Shown one piece after another: positions 1 through 42,342 of a stretch of DNA of 44,169 nt; position 1 is the first letter of the stretch, and each line of letters opens with the position of its first letter. The notes beneath the pieces were generated by a model that made no database searches, had not been told where the DNA came from, and saw nothing but the letters and a program-made list of their open reading frames with translations. The DNA is from a virus (taxonomy: Duplodnaviria > Heunggongvirae > Uroviricota > Caudoviricetes). The stretch is taken from the IMG/VR virus record IMGVR_UViG_2740892274_000005; one strand, 5' to 3'. A program made the translations under genes and the position numbers.

Positions 1-136
1 GATCAAGAGCCTGTCCAATGTGCATAAAAAAATCCGGAAACAAGTGAGCGTTTCCGGATTCTTACACAGCCACTGGATCGGTCAACTGATCCTTAACTGA
101 TCGGCATTAGCTCAATGAGCACCTTTTTTCTGTCTG

Positions 137-427
137 TTATTTATTCGCTGATTTTTCTGCTCGTTGCCTGCGAAGCTCTTTCGGATCGGCAATGAGAGGG
201 CGATAAATCTCCACCCGATCGCCATCATGCACACTATCGCTTAGTTTTGCCGGACGGCTGTAAATGCCGACTTTGTTTTTAGTTAAATCGATATCGGTAC
301 GCAATTCCAGCAAGCCACTGGCGCGAATAGCTTCTTCAACCGTCGCGCCCTCCTGCAGCGTCACGCGCTGCAGGTACTGCTTCTCAGGTAGCGCATAAGC
401 CACCTCAACGGCAATTTTACCTAGCAC
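137..427 (-). CDS. ratB: RnfH-like protein RatB/YfjF (UPF0125 family)
   Basis: Minus-strand frame of tracked ORF 137..511; GTG start at 427..425 (GTG CTA GGT AAA = VLGK) overlaps the ratA stop by 11 nt. Translation ...[56 protein letters not shown]... matches the conserved enterobacterial YfjF as I recall it. Confidence 0.8.
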
Positions 428-854
428 TGTAAACCTCTTTCGCACGAACCGTAAAAGCCTGGACCATATTAGACGCCAGCTCTTTAAACACGCGACCAAA
501 GGCGAGTTCAATCAACTTATTGGTAAACTCAAAGTCGAGATGAAACTCGATACGACACGCCTCCTGGCTCAGCGGCGTAAACTTCCATCCACCAATCAAT
601 TTCTTGAACGGCCCATCCACCAGATTCATAAGAATACTTTGGTTACTGGTCAACTGGTTGCGGGTAGTAAACGTTTTGCTGATCCCAGCCTTAGAGACAT
701 CTACCGCCGCAGTCATCTGCCCAGGAGTGGACTCCAGAATCCGACTTCCGGTACAACCCGGCAAAAACTGAGGATAAGACTGAACGTCATTCACTAACTG
801 ATACATTTGCTCCGCGCTGTAGGGTACCAGTGCGGTCCGGCTAATCTGAGGCAT
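417..854 (-). CDS. ratA: SRPBCC-family ribosome-association toxin RatA (YfjG/PasT)
   Basis: Tracked ORF 417..893; likely start is the internal Met giving [34 protein letters not shown].... Conserved position next to smpB in enterobacteria. Confidence 0.85.
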
Positions 855-1024
855 AACTATTTCCATCAACAAAAATCCAACAAATAATATCATTTATCCT
901 GCTGTAAAAAAAACGCTATCCCGGCGCTGGGTAACATCGGGTTCATGCTAAGATAGAGCCTTGTCCCCCGCAGGATTGATATGGGGTGTTTTCGATTTCA
1001 GATTACCGATGATTCACGACGCTT

Positions 1025-1507
1025 ATGACGAAGAAAAAAGCACATAAACCTGGTTCAGCGACCATCGCGCTTAACAAGCGCGCCCGTCACGAATACTTTA
1101 TCGAAGAAGAGTTCGAAGCGGGACTTGCCCTGCAAGGCTGGGAAGTTAAATCCCTGCGCGCAGGAAAAGCCAATATCAGCGACAGCTACGTCCTTCTGCG
1201 TGACGGAGAGGCATTTCTGTTTGGCGCTAACATCACGCCAATGGCCGTGGCCTCCACGCATGTGGTGTGCGATCCTACCCGTACCCGCAAGTTACTTCTC
1301 AACCAGCGCGAACTGGACTCATTGTACGGTCGCGTCAATCGAGAAGGCTATACCGTAGTGGCGCTCTCCCTGTACTGGAAAAATGCCTGGTGCAAAGTGA
1401 AAATCGGCGTCGCCAAAGGTAAAAAACAGCACGATAAACGTTCAGATATCAAAGAACGCGAATGGCAGGTGGATAAAGCACGTATCATGAAAAACGCCCA
1501 CCGTTAA
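1025..1507 (+). CDS. smpB: SsrA-binding protein SmpB
   Basis: 160-aa translation [61 protein letters not shown]... is essentially identical to E. coli SmpB as I recall it; sits immediately upstream of ssrA. Confidence 0.97.
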
Positions 1508-1721
1508 ACCTGCACTCCAATTATTGACCAGTTCCTCACCGCGCCTCCCTCTCCGGCGGCGCGAATGAACATCTTATTGGCTATCACATCCGACACAAAT
1601 GTTGCCATCCCATTGCTTAATCGAATAAAAATCAGGCTACATGGGTGCTAAATCTTTAACGATAACGCCATTGAGGCTGGTCATGGCGCTCATAAATCTG
1701 GTATACTTACCTTTACACATT

Positions 1722-2084
1722 GGGGCTGATTCTGGATTCGACGGGATTTGCGAAACCCAAGGTGCATGCCGAGGGGCGGTTGGCCTCGTAAAAAGCCGCA
1801 AAAAATAGTCGCAAACGACGAAAACTACGCTTTAGCAGCTTAATAACCTGCTTAGAGCCCTCTCTCCCTAGCCTCCGCTCTTAGGACGGGGATCAAGAGA
1901 GGTCAAACCCAAAAGAGATCGCGTGGAAGCCCTGCCTGGGGTTGAAGCGTTAAAACTTAATCAGGCTAGTTTGTTAGTGGCGTGTCCGTCCGCAGCTGGC
2001 AAGCGAATGTAAAGACTGACTAAGCATGTAGTACCGAGGATGTAGGAATTTCGGACGCGGGTTCAACTCCCGCCAGCTCCACCA
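1722..2084 (+). ncRNA. ssrA: tmRNA (transfer-messenger RNA, SsrA), 363 nt
   Basis: Starts GGGGCTGATTCTGGATTCGAC and ends GGGTTCAACTCCCGCCAGCTCCACCA (tRNA-like acceptor/T-arm with encoded CCA). Internal tag reading frame GCAAACGACGAAAACTACGCTTTAGCAGCTTAA = ANDENYALAA-stop. Candidate -10 TATACT at 1702..1707. Confidence 0.97.
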
Positions 2085-2207
2085 CTTTTGACAGGACTGC
2101 AACCGGACAGAGACTATAAAAACAGTCACTTACGGACACTGACCAGACAGTAAGCGGACCAGAAAAAGACAAAAATATACACGCAAAATGCACGTGCATT
2201 TCAAAAA

Positions 2208-2237
2208 AGCCTCTGATTATGAAGTCAGAGGCTTTTC
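2208..2237 (+). terminator. Rho-independent terminator downstream of ssrA
   Basis: Perfect 9-bp stem AGCCTCTGA / TCAGAGGCT (2208..2216 and 2225..2233) with an 8-nt loop, followed by TTTT. Confidence 0.7.
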
Positions 2238-2282
2238 TAGTTGTAAATAAGGGTAACAATTTAACACGATGCAGCTTACCAA

Positions 2283-3134
2283 TTACGTAACATCAAACGC
2301 TCTAATTGTTCCCAAATCCTCCAGACCACTCAGCTCCTCTTTCATTTCACGCTGACGGCGATAAATCTCATCGTTGCGATCGACCTGCGCCTGCACCATT
2401 GCTGCCGCCAGTTCTTCCAGTTCCGGCATCGACAGTTTCACCTGCTGATTATCGGCATCACCCCACGCCATATGCGTTTGTGCTGTGACAGATTTTGCCA
2501 GCATGACTACCGGGGACAGGCGGCCCAGTGAGTNNNNNNNNNNNNNNNNNNNNNNNNNNNNNNNNNNNNNNNNNNNNNNNNNNNNNNNNNNNNNNNNNNN
2601 NNNNNNNNNNNNNNNNNNNNNNNNNNNNNNNNNNNNNNNNNNNNNNNNNNNNNNNNNNNNNNNNNNNNNNNNNNNNNNNNNNNNNNNNNNNNNNNNNNNN
2701 NNNNNNNNNNNNNNNNNNNNNNNNNNNNNNNNNNNNNNNNNNNNNNNNNNNNNNNNNNNNNNNNNNNNNNNNNNNNNNNNNNNNNNNNNNNNNNNNNNNN
2801 NNNNNNNNNNNNNNNNNNNNNNNNNNNNNNNNNNNNNNNNNNNNNNNTTCCATTCAAACGTGAACGGCTTCGCCTCCTGTTCTGTGCGCCATGCTTCAAT
2901 TTCCTGACGTCTGGCCTCTCTGGCCGCTTCCAGCATTTCTGGTGTCACAGTGAATGGGGCTATCTCACCCCATTTGCCACTTTGCAGTTCCTGCCAGATT
3001 CGCTGACCCGTCGGTGCGACATCATCAGCGGTGGCTGTGTAGGGGACTGCCTGGTCCCTGTCGTCAAAAAAAACGTCACAGTCTACTGCGCCACTTTCGG
3101 TATAACGGGGATTAATGATTTTTTTAATTTCCAC
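2283..3134 (-). CDS. Phage protein, possibly tail-fibre assembly/chaperone; interrupted by the N run (may be one or two genes)
   Basis: GTG start at 3134..3132 preceded by GAGGAA with a 6-nt spacer, the RBS overlapping the stop of the upstream tail-fibre gene (cgTGAGGAAtgcaccGTG). N-terminal part VEIKKIINPRYTESGAVDCDVFFDD...; C-terminal part after the gap ends ...GLEDLGTIRAFDVT. Functional call rests on position after a tail-fibre gene and is tentative. Confidence 0.4.
   Translation of the reverse strand: MEIKKIINPRYTESGAVDCDVFFDDRDQAVPYTATADDVAPTGQRIWQELQSGKWGEIAPFTVTPEMLEAAREARRQEIEAWRTEQEAKPFTFEWXXXXXXXXXXXXXXXXXXXXXXXXXXXXXXXXXXXXXXXXXXXXXXXXXXXXXXXXXXXXXXXXXXXXXXXXXXXXXXXXXXXXXXXXXXXXXXXXXXXXXXXXXXSLGRLSPVVMLAKSVTAQTHMAWGDADNQQVKLSMPELEELAAAMVQAQVDRNDEIYRRQREMKEELSGLEDLGTIRAFDVT
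2534..2847. other. Run of 314 N (assembly gap or masked sequence)
   Basis: Uninterrupted n characters from 2534 to 2847. Every tracked ORF containing X runs is an artefact of translating this stretch. Confidence 0.99.
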
Positions 3135-3144
3135 GGTGCATTCC

Positions 3145-4317
3145 TCACGATGTGCGAATAAAAAGCCCGGGCATTGCGCCAGAGACATGAGCATCCGGCA
3201 CCCCGGACAGGGCGCTATATGACCCCGGTAATGAATGCTCTGAACATCCCGTAATGAAAAATTGTGGGGATGCTATATACGTTCCGGTGGGAGTACTGGG
3301 CACTGAAATCCCCACCGGTCCCAGTCGTGAGCCTCTGTATGACTGCCCCCTGACAAGTCTGATGACTTTATCACCGTCAGCTTCTCCCTGGTACGCAGCA
3401 ATAATCAGCCCGCCAATGTCAGGGTCTCCCCATCTGTTGCAGACAGAGCTCGCCACGATTCTGTAAATAATATCTTCTGTGGTTATATTTATTTTCACCC
3501 AGCCAGTCAGTCTGGATATGGGCCAGTAGCAGTAGCGGGTGTGATAAATGGGGCCGTTAATGCCGTAAAAAGTAAGGGATTTGGCTCTGTACCTCGGTTC
3601 TGTTGTCTCAGGGCGTGCATCAGTCCACCGGATGCTGAGCACCCCTTCAAACCGTGTGTCGGGTATGATGATGTCGTAGGGGCCAGCAACGGAATATTCA
3701 CCTGGCAGCGCATTCCTTACCCAGGCCAGGAAATCACTCTTAGTGTCAAAACGGATAACATCTTCAGGCAGAAAAGCACACCCAAAGCCGAATGCGCCGG
3801 GTATCGCCAGACGGCCTTTTGTCCGGTCGTAAATGTCGCTCTGTGCTTCCATCGTGGCCGCACTTTTCAGCCCCAGATTATCCCGGGACTTCTGTTGTGC
3901 CTTTTCGCCTGCTGCTGCGATTTCAGACAGATGGTTAGCCGTTTTCAGAGTGCCGGTCAGCGCAGCATCAATGTCATTTTTGGCCTGCTCTGCTGCGCGG
4001 GCATAACCTGCGGCTGCCGCCACATCCTGCGCCGTCTGCTGTGCGTTTCCGGCTGCGGCCCCGGCGCTCTGCTGCGCCTGCGCCACCATTTCCTCAAAGC
4101 GTTTGACGACATCCGGTTTCAGGTCGCCCTCATCAGGAGCAATCAGAAAGTCATTCAGCGTGCCGGGCTTTGAGTCGTCGTATACAGCAATGTCGCCAAC
4201 GTTGTACTCGTTGTGCCAGCCCGGTTTCAGATACACACCATATTTTCCAGTCCGCGCATGGAAACAGTATTCACCATCGTTTCCTGTCATCACATCAGCA
4301 ACAGTGTGCATCACCAC
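3145..4317 (-). CDS. Phage tail fibre protein, probably a 5'-truncated remnant abutting the IS66 terminus
   Basis: 390-aa translation with an Ala/Gln-rich segment (AQAQQSAGAAAGNAQQTAQDVAAAAGYARAAEQAKNDIDAALTG...) then ...NLGLKSAATMEAQSDIYDRTKGRLAIPGAFGFG..., which resembles side-tail-fibre proteins. The first in-frame Met is only 16 bp from the IS66 end at 4334. Confidence 0.55.
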   Translation of the reverse strand: MVMHTVADVMTGNDGEYCFHARTGKYGVYLKPGWHNEYNVGDIAVYDDSKPGTLNDFLIAPDEGDLKPDVVKRFEEMVAQAQQSAGAAAGNAQQTAQDVAAAAGYARAAEQAKNDIDAALTGTLKTANHLSEIAAAGEKAQQKSRDNLGLKSAATMEAQSDIYDRTKGRLAIPGAFGFGCAFLPEDVIRFDTKSDFLAWVRNALPGEYSVAGPYDIIIPDTRFEGVLSIRWTDARPETTEPRYRAKSLTFYGINGPIYHTRYCYWPISRLTGWVKINITTEDIIYRIVASSVCNRWGDPDIGGLIIAAYQGEADGDKVIRLVRGQSYRGSRLGPVGISVPSTPTGTYIASPQFFITGCSEHSLPGSYSALSGVPDAHVSGAMPGLFIRTS

Positions 4318-4333
4318 TTCCGGGGTGTTTACC

Positions 4334-4360
4334 GTAAGCGTGCAGCAAGAACCGTATTGA
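4334..4360. repeat. IS66-family terminal inverted repeat (right end), begins GTAAGCG
   Basis: GTAAGCGTGCAGCAAGAACCGTATTGA lies 11-37 bp downstream of the tnpC stop (4371). IS66-family IRs characteristically begin 5'-GTAA. Exact IR length not determinable without the other end. Confidence 0.5.
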
Positions 4361-4370
4361 CGGGAATGTG

Positions 4371-4829
4371 TTATTCAGTCGGCAGTGCTACGCGCCAGGG
4401 GAGCAGTTCGCCGACCCGGTTTATCGGCCAGTCGGCTATGACGTCAAGGACATAGCGGAGGTAGCTTTCTGGCTCCACTCCGTTCAGTTTGCACGTCCCG
4501 ATCAGGCTGTACAGCAGCGCTCCCCGCTCTCCTCCATGATCCGAACCGAAGAACAGGTAGTTTTTGCGGCCCAGACTGACCATCCGCAACGCATTTTCAG
4601 CGATGTTATTGTCCGCCTCAGCCCAGCCATCATCTGCATAGTACGTCAGCGCCGGCCACTGGTTCAGGGCATATGCGAACGCTTTCGCCAGTTCTGAGTG
4701 TCGCGACAGGGTTTTCATCTTTTCACGCAGCCAGCTTTCCAGGGATTTCAGCAGCGGTTTCGTTTTCAACTGACGTTCGGCAAGGCGCTGTTTCAGCAGG
4801 AAGATGTCGTCAGAAGAGATGTCGTTCAT
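4371..4829 (-). pseudogene. IS66-family transposase TnpC, C-terminal fragment only (about 150 aa)
   Basis: Translation ...IAENALRMVSLGRKNYLFFGSDHGGERGALLYSLIGTCKLNGVEPESYLRYVLDVIADWPINRVGELLPW... matches the conserved C-terminus of IS66 TnpC. The N-terminal two-thirds is absent; the frame closes just before the prophage right end. Confidence 0.8.
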
Positions 4830-4936
4830 AAGCCCGTATTTTACCGGGCTTATTCTGTGACAACCAGGATAAAGAGATTTACAGCATGGTCAGGGAGGTC
4901 AGCAGCCGCTTAGGCTGTCTATAGCGCGGCGATTTT

Positions 4937-5010
4937 TTTGATACCGATTTGCATTTCATTTGATACCGCTGAAAAACGCCGATACGCAACTTATTTGATA
5001 CTAAATCGGC
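4937..5010. repeat. Prophage right-end repeats (putative transposase-binding sites, attR-like)
   Basis: TTTGATACCG at 4937..4946 and 4959..4968, plus variant TTTGATACTAAATCGG near 4994..5009. These are the reverse complement of the CGGTATCAAA copies at the left end. Confidence 0.6.
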
Positions 5011-5047
5011 GCTTTTCTTTTGAGTTTTAGAATGAGTTTTTAAGCGT

Positions 5048-5785
5048 TCATTCACTCTCTTTCAAACCAGTTTTAACTGTTTGTGGTTTTGGGTAAGGCT
5101 GGACTTTGAATAGCTTTGTGTTAAGGCGTTTTCTGGCTCTCTTGTCCAGAAACCGGATGTAACGAAACTGACGGAATTTATGAACACTGGCTCTGTCGAT
5201 ATTAGCCCGCAGATGTTCACCTCGCTGTCCTCCTCGTTTGATTGCATTCTTGCAAATCTCGTGATACCACTCGCCATCAAGTTCATAGAATGTTGTTTCA
5301 TGACTGCCTACATAATCAAAATTGCTTGCCTGGTACACGACACCAAGACAGCCACAACGCTCATCTGCAAACGACTGAACCCACTGCACCTGCGGATAAA
5401 GTTGTCTGATTAGTTTGAGCGCGTAACTGATTGCCCTTGATTCGGAGTTTCTCGGCATACAGTCATGCAGCCATAACCGGTTAAGCTCCATATATTCGCG
5501 GTTCTGCGTGCCAGTTACGACGCGTGCACCATTGTTTGGATTAAGGGCATAACCCCATTGCATTACGCCAACCAGCTCCCGTTCTGAAAATATGCCCAGA
5601 TGAAGGTAGGAATTATTTACGAAACGATGGCTGTAATGTTTATTGACGACGACCAGCCGGGCCAGCCAGCAACTTATTGTCTCAACCCGTAACTCACGGG
5701 AGCCATAACCGACGATATTGTCGTTATAGTGAATAAGTTCAGGCGTGCTGATGATACGGGATGTAACTTGCTTTCTGTTCCCCAC
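5048..5785 (-). CDS. mom: Mom-like DNA modification protein (adenine carbamoylmethylation family), start inferred at internal GTG
   Basis: Last gene before the right end and overlapped by a Com-like gene, as in Mu. Proposed start GTG at 5785..5783 preceded by AGGAAA with a 9-nt spacer (245 aa, against 231 aa for Mu Mom). The tracked 310-aa ORF 5048..5980 would run through com and is not favoured. Identity rests mainly on synteny. Confidence 0.6.
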
Positions 5786-5939
5786 GACAGGATTTCCTTG
5801 TGTATGTGGGGTGCTCTGTGGCGCTCTGAGATGTGATTTGATTGAGGGTTTTACAGCGCGGACATTTAACTTCCAGATAACTGAAGCTGGCTCGTGCCAG
5901 TAGCTTGTTACAATGTCGGCACCGTATGTTTCGATACAT
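5739..5939 (-). CDS. com: Com-like zinc-finger translational activator of mom
   Basis: [34 protein letters not shown]...EHPT... matches the Mu Com pattern (IRCKNCNKLL...IEIRCPRCK...EHPT) as I recall it. ATG at 5939..5937 with AGGAGG 10 nt upstream. The 3' end overlaps the mom start, as in Mu. Confidence 0.75.
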
Positions 5940-6195: not shown

Positions 6196-6489
6196 ATGGA
6201 CAATCATGTAACGACGAGAAATCGAAAAATGATTGAAAATGCGGAAATCTATAATGATTATTTTTCCGATTATTCAGATGCCTGCAAATACAGTTCGAGT
6301 GCGGGAGAGTTCATATGCTTCAACTTTTTTATTAAATCTTATGTTTTTCCTCCACAGCAAGAAGATGGAGGTGTGCCACCTCCTGAAATCACTTTGCACC
6401 GTATAGCCTCCGTCTCAATGATGGAGCAACAGGCTAATGAGCTGTATAGCATTCTGGGAACGATTCTACAAAAGCGTGAATCGGACTAA
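6196..6489 (+). CDS. Hypothetical protein (low-GC moron), divergent from com-mom
   Basis: 97-aa ORF with AAGAGG 6 nt upstream of the ATG. Visibly AT-richer than the phage backbone. No family recognised. Confidence 0.5.
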   Translation: MDNHVTTRNRKMIENAEIYNDYFSDYSDACKYSSSAGEFICFNFFIKSYVFPPQQEDGGVPPPEITLHRIASVSMMEQQANELYSILGTILQKRESD

Positions 6490-6656: not shown

Positions 6657-6911
6657 TTACATCATGGTACTGTCAGTTCCGGGCTGAGCCGGGTCTGGTT
6701 GCTCTGGCTGCGCGTCGGTTTTCGGCTCATTATCAGCATCACTGGCCGCAACTGCTGGCCCAATAAGTTTTGCCAGCACTTCATCAACGTAAGTGTCGAT
6801 TTGTGCCTCAAAATCCTTGCGGACCTGCGCTTTCAGCAACTTATTTACTTCACCGGAATACAGTGCCTGTTTTACCAGGTCTTCAGTGACGGTGCCTTTA
6901 ATTTCTGGCAT
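6657..6911 (-). CDS. Hypothetical acidic 84-aa protein
   Basis: ATG at 6911 preceded by AAGGAGGA with about 6-nt spacing. Translation MPEIKGTVTEDLVKQALYSGEVNKLLKAQVRKDFEAQIDTYVDEVLAKL... then an acidic/Pro-rich tail. No family recognised. Confidence 0.6.
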   Translation of the reverse strand: MPEIKGTVTEDLVKQALYSGEVNKLLKAQVRKDFEAQIDTYVDEVLAKLIGPAVAASDADNEPKTDAQPEQPDPAQPGTDSTMM

Positions 6912-6946
6912 GTATATCCTCCTTATGCGGGAATAAAGCCCTGCAA

Positions 6947-7129
6947 TCAGGGCTGGGTCGGGTCTTTTGGGAGCGGAGTTACCTGCGCTGTTTTACTGAG
7001 TTTTTCAGCTGCTGCGTCCTCAATTTTGCGGCGAACATAATTTCTGATGGCCTTATAACCACCACTCACCAGATATAACGCACATACTGCCGTGCAGAAA
7101 TACAATAAAATAAGCTGTAAAAATGTCAT
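6947..7129 (-). CDS. Small single-pass membrane protein (60 aa)
   Basis: ATG at 7129..7127 preceded by GGGAGGG. MTFLQLILLYFCTAVCALYLVSGGYK has one N-terminal hydrophobic helix followed by a charged tail. The tracked ORF begins 4 codons earlier. Confidence 0.6.
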   Translation of the reverse strand: MTFLQLILLYFCTAVCALYLVSGGYKAIRNYVRRKIEDAAAEKLSKTAQVTPLPKDPTQP

Positions 7130-7225: not shown

Positions 7226-7267
7226 GCCGCCGGTTTCTTGTTTTCCCTTACCGGCGGCATTTTTTTA
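7226..7267 (+). terminator. Rho-independent terminator, plus-strand orientation
   Basis: GCCGCCGGT (7226..7234) and ACCGGCGGC (7250..7258) form a 9-bp GC-rich stem, followed by ATTTTTTTA on the plus strand. On the minus strand the hairpin is followed by AAAAAG, so it is oriented for plus-strand transcripts. Confidence 0.55.
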
Positions 7268-7273
7268 TCCTGC

Positions 7274-9328
7274 TTACGCGTTATTCACTTCCACCACGAT
7301 ACTGTCAATCAGTACCGGGTAAGTCGCATTTTTAGTGATATCGGTCACGCGCAACTTGTCTGCCGTAAACGTGCCGACCGGAGACTGCGACAGCATGAAT
7401 GGTGTCCCGTCCTTACCATCAATGACCGGCGTCACCTCAATACTGTTGTTACCGGCAAAACGGAAGCCCAGCGTATGCCATTCGTTATTAAATGCGCCGA
7501 ATGACCCCAGCTTCGTGTTCTGCGCCGTGTTTCCTTTGTGATACATCACGTTAAGGTCTGTGGCATCGCTCTGTACGTAGAACGATGCCAGCAGGTTATG
7601 ACCGGCATTTCCTTCCAGAGTAACCCCTTGCGGCAGGGCAGAAACCGGCCAGTACAGCGCCAGTGCGTACTGATTAGCCGTAAGCGCGCCATCGAGTTTA
7701 AAACGACAACTGACAAGACCACCTTTACCCAGCAGGTCCGCACCATTACCAGCATCATGCTCAAGGTACCAGGGGGCTCTTCCTGTTTCCTTGGTCAGTT
7801 TCATTGCCTTACCCCCGCTGGCTCCGGCATCATCCACGATTTGAGCCTTGCCACCTCCGGCAGCCCAACCCTGTGGTGTCAACCGTCCTTCAGACTCAGA
7901 TGCCCGGTAAGCAAATAGCGTACTCATCGTCGTGGTGTCTGCGGGTGGCGTGGACGGTTTTGATGGTGTATCAGGTGACGGCTTCTCATCCGGTGGTGTC
8001 ACGGTCTGCCCACGCATCAGTTCAGCCGTGCGCCCTGCATGGAGCATAATAGCTGAGGCCAGACGGTCTGAAATGACGCCCCTGCGTGCCCATGAGCTGA
8101 AATGGCTGTCACGCTGTGTCGAAACAAAACTGCCCTGGGTTCGGGATGCTGCACCGTAATACCCGACAGCCACAATATCCGGGTCTTCCGCCGGAGCATT
8201 CGTTGGCGTGCTCTGTCCATTCTCATCCGTCAGGAACGGTACAAAGAAAATTTTCTGTGCTTCCTTGCCTTTGTAGCCACCGTATACTGCCTCATATTTA
8301 TCGGTGCCAGCGTTTTTCCAGTAATACGTGGTATCACCGCAAATCCACGGCACCGTGGTGGCATTTCCACTCACGCACTGCGCAGCAAGCGGAGCCAGGT
8401 CAGTTCTGAACTGCTGAACCATGGCCGTGAATAAACTATTATGCTGCTGGCTTCCTGAGGCAAGGTCTGCCTCTCCCTGCATCCAGACCACAGCCAGAAG
8501 TTTGTTTTTCGGGTTTTTCGCCAGCGCGACTTTGGTGCGGCTTACCAGGTCCTGATACAGAGGTTTACCGGCCCCCCAGCGTGAAGAATCAGCGGAAGCA
8601 CCGCTGGCCTCACTGAATGAGCCGTCGGCTCCAGTGGTGAATGCTGACCCGCCACGACAACAGGGCACCAGAAGTATCCCGGCATTCTGTGGGATATAGG
8701 GAAGCAGTTTTTTGGCAATATGCAACCCCTGACCGACAGTCCCGTACTGGCCTTTTGCCAGATCAGCTTTCGGGTGGTTTATCCCGCTCATATCCTGAAC
8801 ATCATGCAGGCAGTGGTCTGCCGGAATGATGTCGTTGTATGTACACGACGTACCGTTGGGCGTTACCGTACTGCGGCGTGCCAGTTGCTTAATGCGTGGG
8901 TCCGGGCGGTCAAACGAATCCGGTAACGGCAGCCCCTCGCCGTAGGCCATGCCATTTGACTGACCCGCGAGAATGACAACAAAGTAATATTCCGGCTCTG
9001 AACTGCTGCCATTCGTGCTACCGGAAGGCCCGGCGTTATCCGGTGCATTCCAGTCGGAGGGCGTGAGCGTTCCGGCCACGTCAGATGTGATTGGAATGAT
9101 GCCAGTCACGCCTGAACTGGTGATTTCTGCACTGGGATTACCGGATACCGGCATTACCCATAATGGCTCTTTCGTGCTGAAGCGGATCACGCAGTCTGCG
9201 AAGGTGATCCCCCCTTTATTACCCGAAGGGCGGAAAGGGCTTTCAATAAATGCCACCGTGCCACCGGCAACCTTGACTGAAAACTCTCCGGGCATGGCGG
9301 AGAGCATTTTCCACTTGGAGTCTGACAT
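7274..9328 (-). CDS. SGNH/SASA-type carbohydrate esterase-domain protein (sialate O-acetylesterase-like), 684 aa; candidate polysaccharide deacetylase
   Basis: Contains the esterase block YYFVVILAGQSNGMAYGEG (GQSN motif of the SASA/SGNH fold) after an N-terminal region of about 115 aa. C-terminal region of about 250 aa could be a lectin/jelly-roll domain. Not a Mu core gene. Confidence 0.7.
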   Translation of the reverse strand: MSDSKWKMLSAMPGEFSVKVAGGTVAFIESPFRPSGNKGGITFADCVIRFSTKEPLWVMPVSGNPSAEITSSGVTGIIPITSDVAGTLTPSDWNAPDNAGPSGSTNGSSSEPEYYFVVILAGQSNGMAYGEGLPLPDSFDRPDPRIKQLARRSTVTPNGTSCTYNDIIPADHCLHDVQDMSGINHPKADLAKGQYGTVGQGLHIAKKLLPYIPQNAGILLVPCCRGGSAFTTGADGSFSEASGASADSSRWGAGKPLYQDLVSRTKVALAKNPKNKLLAVVWMQGEADLASGSQQHNSLFTAMVQQFRTDLAPLAAQCVSGNATTVPWICGDTTYYWKNAGTDKYEAVYGGYKGKEAQKIFFVPFLTDENGQSTPTNAPAEDPDIVAVGYYGAASRTQGSFVSTQRDSHFSSWARRGVISDRLASAIMLHAGRTAELMRGQTVTPPDEKPSPDTPSKPSTPPADTTTMSTLFAYRASESEGRLTPQGWAAGGGKAQIVDDAGASGGKAMKLTKETGRAPWYLEHDAGNGADLLGKGGLVSCRFKLDGALTANQYALALYWPVSALPQGVTLEGNAGHNLLASFYVQSDATDLNVMYHKGNTAQNTKLGSFGAFNNEWHTLGFRFAGNNSIEVTPVIDGKDGTPFMLSQSPVGTFTADKLRVTDITKNATYPVLIDSIVVEVNNA

Positions 9329-9413
9329 CGTCTTTTCTGCCTGTTTCTGAATTAAACAGAGTCAGAATAGCGACCGCTGAAAAATATGTGTTTTGCGGAA
9401 ATTCAAAAAAGCG

Positions 9414-9986
9414 TCACGGTACTTTTGGTGACGGAGCTGGTGAGGCAGGAAAATAACGATAAAGGGTGGAAAGGCCAATATCAAATATCAGTGCGATTTG
9501 TTTACGGGACTCGCCATTAGCCAGCAAACGGGCGATTTGCTCCCGCTCTTTCTCTGTCAGTTTCTGAGGTCTGCCGCCATGACGCCCCTGAGCACGGGCA
9601 GCAGCAAGACCCGCGCGTGTACGTTCAATAATGAGTTCCCGCTCCATTTCCGCCAGCGCGCCCATTATATGGAAAAAGAAACGTCCCATGGGAGTGGATG
9701 TATCAATATTGTCCGTAATGCTGCGGAAGTTAACGCCGCGTTGCCGGAGTTCTTCTGTTAAAAGGACAAGGTGCTGCATACTGCGTCCAAGGCGATCCAG
9801 TTTCCAGACCAGCAGGGTATCCCCTGGCCGGAGTCGCTTTAATGCGCGTTTAAGTCCGGGACGCTCCCTTGTCTTACCGCTTATTCTGTCTTCGAAAAAC
9901 AGCTCACATCCTGCACATTCCAGCGCATTTCTTTGTAGCGCCGTATTCTGGTCATTTGTTGACACCCTGATATACCCAATCAGCAT
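9414..9986 (-). CDS. gin: Serine recombinase DNA invertase (Gin/Hin/Cin/Pin family)
   Basis: MLIGYIRVSTNDQNTALQRNALECAGCELFFEDRISGKTRERPGLKRALKRLRPGDTLLVWKLDRLGRSM... is near-collinear with Mu Gin as I recall it. Lies immediately beside the invertible segment. Confidence 0.93.
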   Translation of the reverse strand: MLIGYIRVSTNDQNTALQRNALECAGCELFFEDRISGKTRERPGLKRALKRLRPGDTLLVWKLDRLGRSMQHLVLLTEELRQRGVNFRSITDNIDTSTPMGRFFFHIMGALAEMERELIIERTRAGLAAARAQGRHGGRPQKLTEKEREQIARLLANGESRKQIALIFDIGLSTLYRYFPASPAPSPKVP

Positions 9987-10051: not shown

Positions 10052-10077
10052 TTCCTGAAAACCTCGGTTTACGGGAA
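10052..10077. promoter_or_regulatory. gix-like crossover site (right border of the invertible segment)
   Basis: Plus strand TTCCTGAAAACCTCGGTTTACGGGAA; its reverse complement TTCCCGTAAACCGAGGTTTTCAGGAA closely matches the Mu gix sequence as I remember it (TTCCTGTAAACCGAGGTTTTGGATAA). It sits exactly where homology between the two repeat blocks ends. Confidence 0.7.
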
Positions 10078-10190
10078 ACGGTAAACAGGGCGGCGAATGC
10101 TCTGCCATCGGACGGCACCGCCGTTGCCGCGAATAGACTCGCCACCCCAAGAAATATTAATGGGGTTCCCTTTGACGGGACGCAGGACAT
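10065..10190. repeat. Inverted repeat block (partner at 11256..11381) inside the invertible segment
   Basis: Plus 10065..10091 CGGTTTACGGGAAACGGTAAACAGGGC is the exact reverse complement of 11355..11381. Tracked ORFs 9999..10199 (-) and 11154..11444 (+) share [26 protein letters not shown] and [11 protein letters not shown], which shows the inverted homology. Confidence 0.85.
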
Positions 10191-10425
10191 AAACATCACT
10201 TCTGGTATAACACAGCAGGATGCGGATTCCCGATATATCCAGGATATCAGGCTGGGAGCAGAGAACAGGCAGGTAATGTACGGTGGGGCATATTACTCTG
10301 CGTACGGTAATGTTATGGCAGGCCTGCAGATTGACAGTAAAGTTGATGCTTCAAACGATTTTATAGCATTCAGACCCCTGCAAAAATTAGTCGGAGGTAC
10401 ATGGATTACGGTATCTCAGTTATAA
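10066..10425 (+). other. Promoterless alternative tail-fibre C-terminal cassette (S'v-like), currently in the off orientation
   Basis: Plus frame from 10066 reads [119 protein letters not shown], stop at 10423..10425. No start codon of its own; it would be fused to the constant fibre part after inversion. C-terminal RPLQKLVGGTW parallels [11 protein letters not shown] of the expressed fibre. Confidence 0.7.
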
Positions 10426-10476
10426 ATAGTCAGTAAATAATATATTTTAAAACAGATTTATTTCCAGGAGGATTTT

Positions 10477-10998
10477 ATGGAACTAAAAAATATAACCCGT
10501 TATTATCCTGAAAATATGCCATATGGTAATAATGTTCAGTATTTCCAGAGTGAAGATGGTAAGGATTTCTACGAATCCCTGCCATTATTCACCAAAAAAT
10601 ATAAACTTTGCATAACACCTGACAGCGGCGTTATCTGCTCAATATCACAGGACGCCTCGGCGCTGTATCCTGCGGGGTTTTCTGTGGTTGAGGTCGATGA
10701 ACTCCCTGAAGGCACGGATATTTCAGGAAACTGGAAGTTTGATAATGGCATAATCTCCCGTATTCCGGTTAACTACGCAAGAAAACTGGAAGCAATGCGC
10801 CAGTCATATCTTAATCAGGCATATGAAAAAATTAATGACTGGAGAACGGAGCTACAACTGGGCACCATCAGCGATGAAGACAGAGCAGCACTTACCCAAT
10901 GGATGGCATACATCAGTCAGGTGAAGAAAATGGAACTACCCGCCATTAAAACAGAAGCTGAATTTAACGCCATTAAATGGCCTGAGCAGCCACAGTAA
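10477..10998 (+). CDS. Tail fibre assembly protein (Tfa/Mu U-type chaperone)
   Basis: 173 aa with AGGAGG upstream. N-terminal region and C-terminal ...AEFNAIKWPEQPQ are typical of the Tfa chaperone family. Follows the alternative fibre cassette on the same strand. Confidence 0.8.
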   Translation: MELKNITRYYPENMPYGNNVQYFQSEDGKDFYESLPLFTKKYKLCITPDSGVICSISQDASALYPAGFSVVEVDELPEGTDISGNWKFDNGIISRIPVNYARKLEAMRQSYLNQAYEKINDWRTELQLGTISDEDRAALTQWMAYISQVKKMELPAIKTEAEFNAIKWPEQPQ

Positions 10999-11001
10999 TA
11001 A

Positions 11002-11021
11002 AGAAGGCCGGAAGGCCTTCT
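11002..11021. terminator. Hairpin between the convergent Tfa and tail-fibre genes (possible bidirectional terminator)
   Basis: AGAAGGCC GGAA GGCCTTCT is a perfect 8-bp stem with a 4-nt loop between the stops at 10998 (+) and 11030 (-). The flanking T/A runs are weak. Confidence 0.45.
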
Positions 11022-11029
11022 GAATATCA

Positions 11030-11911
11030 TTATATACTTGCAGCCGTCACCCATGCTCCATTTAACAGATACTGCAACGGCCGGTAATACACGCCGCCGA
11101 CGTTATCTGCCGTATTCTTACCGACATCCTGTACTTTAATTCCGGTAAGAACATTGCCGCCCCCCAGATTCAGATCCCAGCTTTCCCATGTTCCGGGCAT
11201 ATGTGCGGTCACCGACCCCAGTCTTATGGCGGTTACTGTTCCTGATGAGATAGTGATATCCTGCGTCCCGTCAAAGGGAACACCATTAATTGTGTGGGCA
11301 TTTGCCAGCCTGTTCGCGGCAACGGCGGTGCCGTCCGATGGCAGGGCATTCGCCGCCCTGTTTACCGTTTCCCGTAAACCGACGTTATCGATAAAAGCCC
11401 CTTTATCCGGAATGTCTGCGCCGTTCTGCTCCCTGCGCAGGTAACGGTTATCACCTTCGCTTTTGCTGTAAACATCCAGATTATTACGGGCGGTTCCCTT
11501 ATTCTCCAGGTCGGCGAGATTCTGATCCTTCGCCAGGGCATTAACGTCAGCGGGACCAAGACTGTTTTTTGTGGCAAGCGTCCCCAGACCAAGATAACCA
11601 CGGGCCAGACGCTGGGCCTCCGCACCGGCATCAGCAATTTCTTTCAGGTTATTTTTCCGGGAAAAGGCATTCGCAGCGATAATGGCTTTAATGGACAGCG
11701 TAAGCTGGTTTAACTGCGCCTTATCCGGCTGAATACTGGCTTCAGCCAGAATATTCAGCAGTTCGGCCTGGAGAATATTCAGCCAGTCCTGACCAATCCA
11801 GCTGATACCTTTTTGTCCGTCACCTTCGGTAAACCAGGTGGTGGTATTACTCTGCGCCGGTGCCAGCGCAGGCATATTCGCCACGCCGGAATTATTATCA
11901 ACATGAAACAT
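11030..11911 (-). CDS. Tail fibre protein (Mu S-like), constant N-terminal part fused to the currently selected variable C-terminus
   Basis: N-terminus [43 protein letters not shown] resembles Mu-type fibre proteins. C-terminus ...[22 protein letters not shown]. The gene spans the left gix-like site. Confidence 0.8.
11256..11381. repeat. Inverted repeat block (partner at 10065..10190)
   Basis: Same evidence as for 10065..10190. Encodes the fibre segment [24 protein letters not shown]...[12 protein letters not shown] shared by both alternative C-termini. Confidence 0.85.
11369..11394. promoter_or_regulatory. gix-like crossover site (left border), inside the tail-fibre gene
   Basis: Plus strand TTCCCGTAAACCGACGTTATCGATAA, in inverted orientation relative to the site at 10052..10077. 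Confidence 0.7.
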
Positions 11912-23243: not shown

Positions 23244-24191
23244 TTACAGATAATCCGCGACAACCAGCTCCAGCTTGCCCTTCATCTCGTTAGAGACTGT
23301 GGCGTTACCGTCTGCGAACAGCTCGCGCTCCAGCAGCTGCACCGCCTGTTTTTCCAGCGAGGTGGGGACAACAATATGGGTGGGTTTGATGCCGAGTTTG
23401 CGGCCACCGTCAGCCTTAAAGTCACGCATGGCTGACCAGCCGTGCCACAGCGCATCCAGCGTCAGCGGTGACTGCATCATGTAGGCCATCTGCCAGAAGC
23501 CGTAGCCCACATTGCGACGGGCGGAAGCACCGAACACAAACTCGTTATCAGTAAACGCACGGCCTTCATCGACTTTTGTCTGGGCAACCAGTTCGGCTTT
23601 GCGGCGATCCTGATAAATCAGCGGTTTTACCGCGCGGGAGCAGTCAAGCAGATACCAGGCCGGGCCGCTGTAATCCGCCTGTGCACCGACAGAGCCGGTT
23701 TTTGCCACAAACATATTGCTGACCATCTGTGCATCACCGGAGCCATCCACTTTGGGGTAAACAGGGTGTTCGGTATCAAAGAAGTTCTGGCCGTCATAGC
23801 AGGCCGCATTCAGACCATCACGCAGTGCAGCAAAGACCAGTTCATCCGGTTGTGCCGCAGCGGCACGACCCATTTCCTGGAATAACGGGGAGTAGATGCC
23901 GAGATTGTCGTCTTCAAAGTCATCGCGGCTAATGGCAACGGTGCCTTCAAAGGTTTTGTTCACGATGGCGTAGCCATAGGCTTTCATCTTCTCGATGACG
24001 CGGGAGCCGATCCACTCACGGAACTGCGGGAACTGCCCCAGCCAGCCGTAGGTGTTGGATTTCGAGGTGGACGGCACGGTCATCGCAATTTTCTGGTACT
24101 GCGACGGAGCCATGGACATCCCGGCCTGAAAATCAGAACGGTAGCCCGTCATCAGGGCGGTGATCATCGCCGGTGTAATCGGGGTAGGCAT
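23244..24191 (-). CDS. Major capsid protein (Mu T-like)
   Basis: 315 aa, MPTPITPAMITALMTGYRSDFQAGM...TYGWLGQFPQFREWIGSRVIEKM... resembles Mu major head subunit T as I recall it. Follows the protease/scaffold gene. Confidence 0.85.
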   Translation of the reverse strand: MPTPITPAMITALMTGYRSDFQAGMSMAPSQYQKIAMTVPSTSKSNTYGWLGQFPQFREWIGSRVIEKMKAYGYAIVNKTFEGTVAISRDDFEDDNLGIYSPLFQEMGRAAAAQPDELVFAALRDGLNAACYDGQNFFDTEHPVYPKVDGSGDAQMVSNMFVAKTGSVGAQADYSGPAWYLLDCSRAVKPLIYQDRRKAELVAQTKVDEGRAFTDNEFVFGASARRNVGYGFWQMAYMMQSPLTLDALWHGWSAMRDFKADGGRKLGIKPTHIVVPTSLEKQAVQLLERELFADGNATVSNEMKGKLELVVADYL

Positions 24192-40254: not shown

Positions 40255-42342
40255 TCAGGCCAGCGGATCACTTTCTTTTAATTTCGCTTCGAGCAGTTGC
40301 AATCCCCGCTGGAAATTACGCTCGTATTCTTCATCAGGTTCATCGTCAGCGACCGGTTGCTGAACGGTCACCGTATTACCCACAGGGCGGTATATGTTTT
40401 CCAGCCAGGGCTCCTGCGGCTTGTGCTCCAGCACGTTGACAACCTCATCCTCGGCATCACGGATTTTTTCCTCTGCGCGTTTACGCATGCCTTTAAGGCG
40501 CTGCTGCTGTTTGTAGTATTCCGCGCTGACAGGGAAGGCTTCGCGTTTATTGCCGTCCCATACCGCCTCGCAAATCACGCTGCCATCCGGGCGGCGCACG
40601 GTAATTCGTTCGGCATCATGAATGTCATAGCTGATAAGTACCTTACGGCCATGCTCGTCACGCAGCTCGGGCGCGTAGTAAATATTATTCAGCCAGCGTA
40701 TTTCACAGCGTCTTACAGGGCGCTCCACCATCGGCCGGAACATATCCCGCAGTTCAACATCGGACAGCCATTCAATTTCCGTGTCCTCTTCCGCCAGGCG
40801 TTTTTTTCTGAACTCCGCCGGGCTGTAATGTTTACCGTTCGGCTTCATGGGTAATTCATCGTGCGGCCGGTTGTTGTACCACTCAACACCGTCACGAATG
40901 GCATCAATCAGTTCAGACCAGGACGGTAAATCACGCATCGCTGACTGCTGCCGGGCGTTCAGCCGTTTGCCCTGTTGCAGGGCACTGAATGCCGAGCGTA
41001 AATCGCGGTTGGTTTTACGTAACGTCTCGCGATCTGCTCCTTTCCCGAAATAGGTGCGGTATTTACGGGCTATGCGCATCGGTAATGTGCGGTTAAGCCG
41101 TTCGATAATGCCCCGTCCCTGCGGATTACCGGCAATCCCTGTCGGGTGATTAATCCCCAGTCGTGGCAGTATCCCCACAATCTCCTTATCCAGGACGTCG
41201 GCGGTTTCCCCGGAGCCATTATCCGAGTAATACAGAAACGGTTTGCCATGATGGCGAATACCGTGCTGTATGGCACCGGCTACGGCGAAAACATTTTCAG
41301 CCAGGTCAAGGCTCCAGCCCACCACAAAGCGCGTGCCACCGTCGATAACAAAGGTCACTTCCGGTGCGAATGGCCGCCCGTGAACCGGGTGCGCGCATTT
41401 CAGCTTCATGCCGTGACCGTCACCAATCCAGACATAATTCACCGGCATTCTGGACCAGTCGCGGCGCGTGAATCCCTCAAGCTGACGGTATTCACTGCCA
41501 GTTACCCGGCCTTTTTGTTTCACCACTTCCGGCAGTTTCTTCATTGCGCGGCGAATGGTGTCATAAGAGGGCATGATATCGAGCATATAAGGCTCATCAG
41601 CGTGCCGGTGCTGCCATTCAGCAACAAAATCCTCGTAAGCCTCGGTCATTGGTCGGCCGTTTGACTGGCGATACTGCGCCAGAAATTCGGGCAGCCAGTT
41701 AATATCTTCGGCTTTTATTTCCTGGCGTTTACCCGGTGCCAGTAAAAGCAGGCGTTCAGCGGCGTTCTGTGCCTTGTTAAAGGCCGCAATCCAGCGTTTC
41801 AGCGTGATTTCACTCAACGCGCGGCTGTTTCCCTTTTTGGCGTTCGCCGTCTCAACCATTGCCACAATGCGCTCGTCCAGTTGTGATCGTGCCAGGCTGT
41901 TAACGAGGAACCGGATAGCTTTAGCGCAGCTGAAACCGGGTTGTTGCGTGAATTTCAGCACCTCACTGACGATCGCAATGCGTGCGTCTGCCACCTGGCG
42001 CTGGTTTTCAGTCAGGGCATTGAGGCGTTCGACCATCAGTTGTGGTGATCCGCGATATGCCTCCACCGCATCAACCACGGCAGACGAGCGTCTGGCCTTT
42101 GTCACCACCGGAGCCGGTGATTCATCGGCTTTTTGCGTCATCAGTTGCAGGGCATAACGTTCGCGTAATGCCTGCTGTGTCACTTCAGGTAAACAGTCAA
42201 TGCTGTATTCAAAACCTTTAGCGCCTTTCTTGCGGCGTCTGCTGGTTTCGCTGGTTGCATACTTCCTGATTGAATAGCGAACGCCTTGCTCCGTTCCCGG
42301 CATCCCCGGTAATCCAACCAGTTCTTTAACTGAAGCAAACAT
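40255..42342 (-). CDS. A: Mu-type DDE transposase A
   Basis: 695 aa directly downstream of ner and upstream of B. Large multidomain protein of the size and position of MuA. Confidence 0.88.
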   Translation of the reverse strand: MFASVKELVGLPGMPGTEQGVRYSIRKYATSETSRRRKKGAKGFEYSIDCLPEVTQQALRERYALQLMTQKADESPAPVVTKARRSSAVVDAVEAYRGSPQLMVERLNALTENQRQVADARIAIVSEVLKFTQQPGFSCAKAIRFLVNSLARSQLDERIVAMVETANAKKGNSRALSEITLKRWIAAFNKAQNAAERLLLLAPGKRQEIKAEDINWLPEFLAQYRQSNGRPMTEAYEDFVAEWQHRHADEPYMLDIMPSYDTIRRAMKKLPEVVKQKGRVTGSEYRQLEGFTRRDWSRMPVNYVWIGDGHGMKLKCAHPVHGRPFAPEVTFVIDGGTRFVVGWSLDLAENVFAVAGAIQHGIRHHGKPFLYYSDNGSGETADVLDKEIVGILPRLGINHPTGIAGNPQGRGIIERLNRTLPMRIARKYRTYFGKGADRETLRKTNRDLRSAFSALQQGKRLNARQQSAMRDLPSWSELIDAIRDGVEWYNNRPHDELPMKPNGKHYSPAEFRKKRLAEEDTEIEWLSDVELRDMFRPMVERPVRRCEIRWLNNIYYAPELRDEHGRKVLISYDIHDAERITVRRPDGSVICEAVWDGNKREAFPVSAEYYKQQQRLKGMRKRAEEKIRDAEDEVVNVLEHKPQEPWLENIYRPVGNTVTVQQPVADDEPDEEYERNFQRGLQLLEAKLKESDPLA

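Follow-up and report, generated by a model that had tools for sequence, protein, structure and literature searches.

The esterase gene and its modules

The window analyzed here, the whole 44,169-nucleotide stretch of IMG/VR record IMGVR_UViG_2740892274_000005 (Caudoviricetes), contains a Mu-like prophage with a gene for a 684-amino-acid (aa) esterase between the invertase gene gin and the com-mom operon. By family membership its product is a NanS-p-type sialate O-acetylesterase. We propose that this Mu-type nanS-p gene belongs to a three-gene cassette that recombines with lambdoid prophages, and that its N-terminal module, here called the N-module, is an adaptor bound to the Mu lineage; we assign this account as a whole a probability of about 0.85. 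The gene and the modules that it encodes are as follows.

7274 to 9328, minus strand: Mu-type nanS-p gene, intact open reading frame (ORF) with an ATG start, 684 aa; RefSeq WP_001284083.1, "DUF6645 domain-containing protein"
9083 to 9328, minus strand: N-module, aa 1 to 82, all-beta, cupin/jelly-roll-like, in place of DUF1737, found in Mu-like prophages (E. coli/Shigella, Salmonella) only
8993 to 9082, minus strand: linker 1, aa 83 to 112, Ser/Gly/Pro rich, predicted disordered, predicted local distance difference test score (pLDDT) <50
8039 to 8992, minus strand: catalytic SASA/SGNH type II domain, aa 113 to 430, matching PDB 3PT5, with Gln123-Ser124 (GQSN) and His409
7925 to 8038, minus strand: linker 2, aa 431 to 468, Pro/Thr/Ser rich, 32 to 100% identical between alleles
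7277 to 7924, minus strand: C-terminal lectin-like jelly roll (DUF6645), aa 469 to 684, matching PDB 6YP6 and Pfam DUF6645

The esterase signature spans aa 114 to 132 (YYFVVILAGQSNGMAYGEG) and includes the GQSN motif. Pfam recognized SASA at aa 117 to 312 (E = 1.5e-13) and DUF6645 at aa 533 to 650 (E = 7e-68), and PHROGs placed aa 71 to 684 in phrog_143 (E = 1.7e-296), statistics that lie well outside chance. Residues 110 to 428 align with E. coli NanS/YjhS (PDB 3PT5; E = 1.8e-117, ∼65% identity), and residues 469 to 683 align with the C-terminal domain of a Shiga toxin (Stx) phage NanS-p (PDB 6YP6; E = 7e-98). In lambdoid NanS-p this C-terminal domain is a lectin-like jelly roll (PMC8065619). 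NanS uses Ser19 and His301, with Gln18 in the oxyanion hole, and has no catalytic Asp (PMC9063846). Their counterparts in the 3PT5 alignment are Ser124, His409, and Gln123, which are invariant across 36 homologs. Statements about the active site rest on that alignment; a full-length AlphaFold2 model built from the 36-sequence alignment had a mean pLDDT of 37. No signal peptide or transmembrane (TM) segment was found in the protein (maximum Kyte-Doolittle window, 1.08). For the domains other than the N-module, the ratio of nonsynonymous to synonymous substitution rates (dN/dS) was 0.09 to 0.15.

A preliminary description, made from the letters of the window alone, had reported a 684-aa ORF with an esterase signature at these positions between gin and com-mom, and its observation is confirmed. 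The layout that it drew is also essentially right, with an N-terminal region of ∼112 aa, an esterase core, and a beta-rich C-terminal region of ∼215 aa. Its assignment to the SASA/SGNH O-acetyl esterases is borne out by the match to NanS, the Pfam SASA domain, and the retained catalytic Ser and His, and the carbohydrate-binding or jelly-roll domain that it suspected at the C terminus is homologous to PDB 6YP6, for which that fold has been described (PMC8065619). The Ser-His-Asp triad that it named as a check on function is not a valid yardstick here, because NanS functions without the Asp (PMC9063846).

The enzyme assignment itself is not new: the gene has been public since the sequence of E. 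coli O157:H7 strain Sakai, and some databases already label close relatives "sialate O-acetylesterase." NanS-p proteins from prophages of EDL933 and O104:H4 are active enzymes that de-O-acetylate 5-N-acetyl-9-O-acetylneuraminic acid (Neu5,9Ac2) and mucin glycans, and these lambdoid alleles permit growth on Neu5,9Ac2 (PMC8065619, PMC8319020, PMC10462455). In light of the homology of the core and the C terminus to NanS and NanS-p, and of the trailing genes shared with the latter, the most likely substrate of the Mu-type enzyme is host O-acetylated sialic acid, such as mucin Neu5,9Ac2, rather than an O-antigen or capsule.

An N-terminal module in the place of DUF1737

Lambdoid alleles, as well as one allele from a P2-like phage, begin with the Pfam domain DUF1737. 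Homology between the window protein and lambdoid NanS-p starts only at about residue 94 to 111, within linker 1. Residues 1 to 113 had no Pfam match even at E ≤ 10, so that the DUF1737 hallmark of NanS-p is absent, and comparison of the N-module with DUF1737 revealed no profile similarity (hhalign probability, 0.14%). No paralog of the N-module was found elsewhere within the window. Structure modeling predicted a compact, folded, all-beta domain of six to seven strands, whose nearest folds are small cupins, including the CENP-C/Mif2p dimerization domains, and sugar-binding PA14 domains.

The N-module evolves under purifying selection, its dN/dS being ∼0.23 in comparison with a close allele and likewise with a very distant one, and linker 1 is unconstrained (dN/dS ∼1.2 against the Salmonella allele). 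Set against the unconstrained linker, the ratio of ∼0.23 demonstrates that the N-module is a real, constrained domain.

With the N-module as query, an exhaustive search with HMMER through 1.84 billion representatives yielded one genuine distant relative, a Salmonella enterica fragment that has a 30%-identical N-module, a Pro/Thr linker, and the same start of the esterase and that sits in a Mu-like prophage just downstream of an invertible tail-fiber segment and gin. Two further HMMER matches, P0126 (a HYR-like repeat protein) and P0127 (a low-complexity protein of 150 aa), were judged spurious. Word-indexed searches, with the N-module alone and with a three-sequence profile, yielded nothing beyond fragments of the same proteins and the Salmonella fragment, and a profile scan of a contig collection with one genome per species returned nothing.

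Within E. coli, two types of the module can be distinguished. The window type was found in 32 of 5,426 complete genomes, in up to three copies each. The type of Sp18, the Mu-like prophage of strain Sakai, has an N-module 61% identical to that of the window and was present in 205 of the same 5,426 genomes, in up to four copies each, mostly in E. coli that produce Shiga toxin (STEC); it includes Sakai ECs_4993, annotated "hypothetical protein." Together the two types occur in ∼230 of the 5,426 genomes (∼4%). In each of the 34 IMG/VR loci that carry it, the N-module was joined to the esterase core, and every locus with readable flanks had a Mu-type context, two of them being hybrid on the 3′ side. 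Upstream, that context comprises baseplate J, a tail-fiber chaperone gene, and gin; on the downstream side follow DUF1378, DUF826, com, and mom. The same fusion in the same type of context is present in Sakai Sp18, Mu_JNE122137, strain M3, and the Salmonella prophage. In the literature searched, which omits most subscription journals, neither ECs4993 nor a Mu-borne nanS-p nor the alternative N-terminal module is mentioned.

A recombining cassette in the gin-mom interval

The esterase gene does not stand alone. The interval in which it lies contains the following features.

9414 to 9986, minus strand: gin-type serine invertase gene, directly upstream of the esterase gene
6947 to 7129, minus strand: DUF1378 small membrane protein, 60 aa (Pfam E = 1.2e-31)
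6657 to 6911, minus strand: DUF826 protein, 84 aa, third gene of the cassette (Pfam E = 6e-16)
6229 to 6489, plus strand: ORF on the opposite strand between DUF826 and com, 86 to 97 aa, low G+C
5739 to 5939, minus strand: com, downstream of the cassette
5048 to 5785, minus strand: mom; the com-mom operon (5048 to 5939) is the downstream limit of the accessory interval

In canonical Mu (AF083977), gin is followed by the mom late promoter (Pmom) and com with nothing between, which upholds the earlier view of the esterase gene as an accessory gene missing from canonical Mu. In Sp18-like phages, the gin-com interval is filled by a cassette of ∼2.7 kb and the opposite-strand ORF. The preliminary description was right to put the esterase in this interval but missed the DUF1378, DUF826, and opposite-strand genes. 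Stx phage 75/02 and a lambdoid prophage of strain M3 have the gene order nanS-p, DUF1378, DUF826, holin, and the DUF1378 and DUF826 genes trail the esterase in the window as they do in lambdoid phages, a hallmark of NanS-p. This shared order argues that a three-gene unit, and not the esterase alone, sits in the Mu backbone.

Several comparisons point to exchange of this unit. The DNA is 87% identical to the lambdoid copy of strain M3 from window position 8996 (codon ∼111) to position 6995, inside the DUF1378 gene. Among close Mu-type alleles, N-modules are 86 to 100% identical and cores have diverged to 80 to 95%. The catalytic region of the window protein is up to 92.8%, and its C-terminal region up to 95.4%, identical to those of DUF1737-bearing lambdoid proteins. 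One such DUF1737-type protein comes from a genome, that of strain M3, which carries a Mu-type copy too. We considered whether a DUF1737-type esterase lay inside the M3 Mu-like prophage itself and rejected this, as the protein in question (P0040) belongs to a separate lambdoid prophage there. Taken together, the region-wise identities, the DNA homology breakpoint, and the IMG/VR contexts show that the core and trailing genes have, to judge from these comparisons, been exchanged with lambdoid prophages by homologous recombination, the N-module being inherited with the Mu backbone.

Other alleles vary in further ways. In three Sp18-type alleles (L039, L041, and L042), the C-terminal domain is only ∼40% identical to the DUF6645 domain of the window, which suggests that the lectin-like module is exchanged between alleles too. 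The two 3′-hybrid loci, L009 (1 to 4300) and L014 (3200 to 6600), begin on the 5′ side with gin and a Mu-type 684-aa esterase and continue on the 3′ side with a DUF1378-like gene of lambdoid type, holin, and lysozyme; these junctions may be recombination products formed through the shared cassette or assembly chimeras.

The interval also varies outside the cassette. The opposite-strand ORF at 6229 to 6489 had no match in Pfam, PHROGs, or NCBIfam. In Sakai Sp18 its place is taken by an unlike ORF of 154 aa (ECs_4996), and the slot is therefore a variable accessory position. The Salmonella Mu-like prophage (L006, 9426 to 9910) has two extra small ORFs between gin and the esterase, one for a protein of 58 aa that includes a C-terminal TM segment and one for a protein of 87 aa. 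Their presence shows that accessory genes accumulate downstream of gin.

Prophage context and expression signals

A 5.1-kb region of the window is 100% identical in more than 12 complete RefSeq genomes, identifying the window as E. coli DNA, and the 39 kb surrounding the locus is a Mu-like transposable prophage of E. coli. Besides the marker genes listed below, this prophage has Mu-type baseplate genes and an invertible tail-fiber segment followed by gin and com-mom.

40255 to 42342: Mu transposase, marker of a Mu-like prophage
23244 to 24191: gpT major head protein, marker of a Mu-like prophage
10057 to 11389: invertible tail-fiber segment, with inverted repeats at 10057 to 10142 and 11304 to 11389 (86 nucleotides, 93%)
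4371 to 4829: IS66 transposase fragment, before the Mu right end, in the left flank (window positions 1 to 5050)
2283 to 4317: tail-fiber gene remnants of another prophage, left flank, including a 34% G+C stretch
1722 to 2084: transfer-messenger RNA (tmRNA), left flank
1025 to 1507: SmpB, left flank

The structural region is ∼91% identical to a Mu-like phage inserted within Stx phages of clonal complex 119 (CC119) STEC. According to a published study, these Mu-like phages of CC119 STEC resemble Sp18 of O157:H7 Sakai (PMC10132054), which is reported to be intact and spontaneously induced, with DNA that is efficiently packaged (PMC2669165). Strain PO06021 carries an identical prophage within a diguanylate cyclase gene, and strain M3 carries it within flgL; such differing chromosomal sites are as expected of a transposable phage. 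The inverted repeats of the tail-fiber segment are extended by a second pair at 10156 to 10205 and 11241 to 11290. The segment has only one tail-fiber chaperone gene (10477 to 10998, plus strand), which is paired with the S′ end (10052 to 10426, plus strand). The S′ end is silent in the current orientation, and the expressed fiber gene (11030 to 11911, minus strand) is not followed by a cognate chaperone gene.

The signals that drive the cassette are inconspicuous. The spacer between gin and the esterase gene is 85 bp long, has no terminator-like site, and gave no informative match when aligned with Mu Pmom. A sigma-70 and terminator scan of the locus performed no better than shuffled sequences and identified no convincing promoter. 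The Mu C-box-like dyad TTAT-N6-ATAA occurs once (6923 to 6936), at chance level, and upstream of neither the esterase gene nor com. A hairpin (CTGTTT-AATTCAG-AAACAG) at 9341 to 9359, 12 nucleotides upstream of the esterase ATG, has a similar counterpart in an Sp18-type phage and is not significantly stable (z = −1.2 and −1.8 against shuffles); no clear Shine-Dalgarno sequence follows it. Rfam identified no RNA family in the locus. A significant stem-loop lies just after the esterase stop codon.

7226 to 7258: GC-rich stem-loop with a 10-bp stem, ΔG of −20 kcal/mol, z = −4.65, 0 of 200 shuffles as stable

The T-run of this stem-loop is on the plus strand only, which suggests that it blocks antisense transcription coming from the ORF at 6229 to 6489.

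Proposed mechanism and alternatives

In the account that we favor, the esterase, DUF1378, and DUF826 genes form a cassette that lies between gin and mom in Sp18-like, transposable (Mu-like) prophages, which occur in E. coli, Shigella, and Salmonella. Within the SGNH type II core, Ser124 would act as the nucleophile and His409 as the base, with Gln123 contributing to the oxyanion hole, and the enzyme, like its characterized homologs, would strip sialic acids, Neu5,9Ac2 among them, of their 7/8/9-O-acetyl groups. Its lectin-like jelly roll at the C terminus would direct it to glycans. Lacking a signal peptide, the protein would have to be released by phage lysis or carried out on the virion. As the homologs suggest, mucin sialic acid freed of O-acetyl groups would become usable by sialidases and the Nan pathway, to the benefit of the lysogen population. 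The core and downstream genes are swapped with lambdoid nanS-p cassettes of coresident prophages, with a breakpoint at codon ∼111, and the N-terminal beta-sandwich of ∼82 aa stays with the Mu backbone and would tie the esterase to the Mu-type particle or its assembly.

From its position, the N-module is most likely a lineage-specific adaptor, the Mu-lineage counterpart of DUF1737. A 2026 preprint reports that in phi24B the DUF1737 domain of gp84 sits as hexamers on the central hexons of the T=9 capsid and that cleavage after release removes the catalytic and lectin domains (10.64898/2026.04.10.717836). The N-module replaces exactly this domain and never leaves the Mu backbone, which makes it a candidate adaptor to the Mu particle, and the reported presence of the lambdoid homolog on the phi24B capsid lends virion association indirect support (10.64898/2026.04.10.717836). 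The Mu-type protein, however, lacks DUF1737, the very domain by which the lambdoid homolog binds the capsid. The narrower proposal of a Mu-type virion anchor, located on capsid or tail, is tentative, and we would sooner doubt it than accept it. The predicted cupin-like fold would suit oligomerization or glycan binding equally well.

The same enzyme could instead be a purely soluble lysogenic-conversion or public-good factor, released when a spontaneously induced part of the population lyses, with the N-module serving as an oligomerization or extra glycan-binding domain; we place this at somewhat less than even odds. The nearest folds of the N-module, among them the CENP-C/Mif2p dimerization and sugar-binding PA14 domains, fit such a role; the gene lies beside gin and mom, outside the structural gene blocks; and the growth advantage conferred by NanS-p has been demonstrated without virions (PMC8065619). 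However, a soluble factor would leave unexplained both the strict tie of the N-module to the Mu backbone while the rest is exchanged with lambdoid phages and why exactly the domain that anchors the lambdoid protein to the capsid is replaced. That the N-module is instead the functionless translation of a junction, its 110 N-terminal residues preceding an illegitimately captured and decaying nanS-p fragment, is hardly credible. The weak or unrecognizable Shine-Dalgarno and promoter signals and the merely generic annotation in RefSeq and Sakai would suit a decaying passenger, but the ORF is intact in three lineages across which the N-module has diverged to 61% and 30% identity, selection acts on the N-module (dN/dS ∼0.23) as on the other domains (0.09 to 0.15), the N-module is predicted to be compact, the catalytic residues are invariant, and the gene is present in ∼230 of 5,426 complete genomes. 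These selection and conservation data effectively refute decay.

The preliminary description had proposed, besides a lysogenic-conversion factor that alters the host surface, an O-antigen or capsule deacetylase that modifies the receptor and complements the neighboring switchable tail fiber. Some E. coli surface polymers, such as the K1 capsule and the O104 antigen, do contain O-acetylated sialic acid. A weak match to a PHROG annotated "tail protein" (phrog_25867; E = 1.2e-6) covers only the SGNH region (aa 211 to 312), and a review lists receptor modification as an open possibility for NanS-p (PMC8065619). Nevertheless, an enzyme that works with the invertible fiber in adsorption or blocks superinfection is improbable. 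The core is ∼65% identical to NanS and ∼90% (87 to 93%) identical to NanS-p of the characterized type, which act on sialic acids, and NanS-p has been demonstrated to act on 9-O-acetylated sialic acids, both free and mucin bound (PMC8065619, PMC8319020). The strains that carry the gene belong to many serotypes, most of them without sialylated surfaces; Pfam and PHROGs revealed no tailspike-like architecture or tail-attachment domain; and the cassette moves independently of tail-fiber genes and in lambdoid phages lies beside lysis genes. We found no evidence of a functional link to the adjacent switchable fiber.

The preferred account of a recombining cassette with a Mu-bound adaptor bears on how NanS-p genes are counted. 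These enzymes are regarded as fitness factors with which pathogenic E. coli feeds on O-acetylated mucin sialic acids, and they have been counted on lambdoid prophages. A further class resides on transposable Mu-like prophages, in ∼4% of complete E. coli genomes and mostly in STEC, and surveys that look for DUF1737 or for the region flanking stx would overlook it. The ∼2 kb of 87%-identical cassette DNA shared by unrelated coresident prophages is a potential substrate for chromosomal rearrangement. As an enzyme the protein is ordinary; its value is as a natural domain swap that bears on virion display of the esterase. If the N-module were a virion anchor, the sialate-esterase payload would have been joined to two or more unrelated domains that bind particles: lambdoid and P2-like phages would use DUF1737, and Sp18-like Mu phages the N-module. 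Selection would then act on the display of a mucin-modifying enzyme by the virion itself, for example, because it helps the particle to move or stay in gut mucus, and phages would swap payloads among anchors specific to their lineages through recombination within the linker.

Comparison with known systems

Four sequence-level hallmarks of NanS-p are present in the Mu-type protein and its locus (core, catalytic residues, C-terminal domain, and trailing genes), and two are absent (the DUF1737 N terminus and the lambdoid late-region location). With lambdoid NanS-p it thus shares a SASA/SGNH core (66 to 93% identical), a C-terminal DUF6645 domain (68 to 95%), two flexible linkers, the lack of a signal peptide, and trailing DUF1378 and DUF826 genes. 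It differs in its unrelated ∼82-aa beta-sandwich at the N terminus, where lambdoid NanS-p has DUF1737, and in its location: lambdoid nanS-p lies in the Q-stx-lysis locus, upstream of the holin gene, whereas the Mu-type gene lies in the gin-mom interval of a transposable myophage, so that the Q-antiterminated pR′ late transcript does not cover it.

Chromosomal NanS (YjhS, 3PT5) shares ∼65% identity over the catalytic domain, the Ser/His dyad, and the oxyanion Gln. NanS is a single-domain exported protein of ∼326 aa encoded in the chromosomal nan regulon; in contrast, the Mu-type protein has three modules and 684 aa, is prophage borne, and has no export signal. The DUF1737 domain of phi24B gp84 resembles the N-module in its N-terminal position and in the flexible Ser/Pro-rich linker that precedes the esterase but consists of one helix and three strands, compared with the six to seven beta-strands predicted for the N-module. 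Tailspike and receptor-destroying SGNH deacetylases, whose genes lie among those for the tail, have an N-terminal tail-attachment domain and a trimeric spike, neither of which is found in the Mu-type protein. The locus itself shares with the accessory slot at the right end of Mu-like phages the presence of nonessential accessory genes by gin and mom, transcribed in the late direction, and it differs from the right end of canonical Mu, which has no gene between gin and Pmom where Sp18-like phages carry the cassette. The Mu-type protein is distinct from chromosomal NanS, from the DUF1737 decoration protein, and from the tailspike-type deacetylases.

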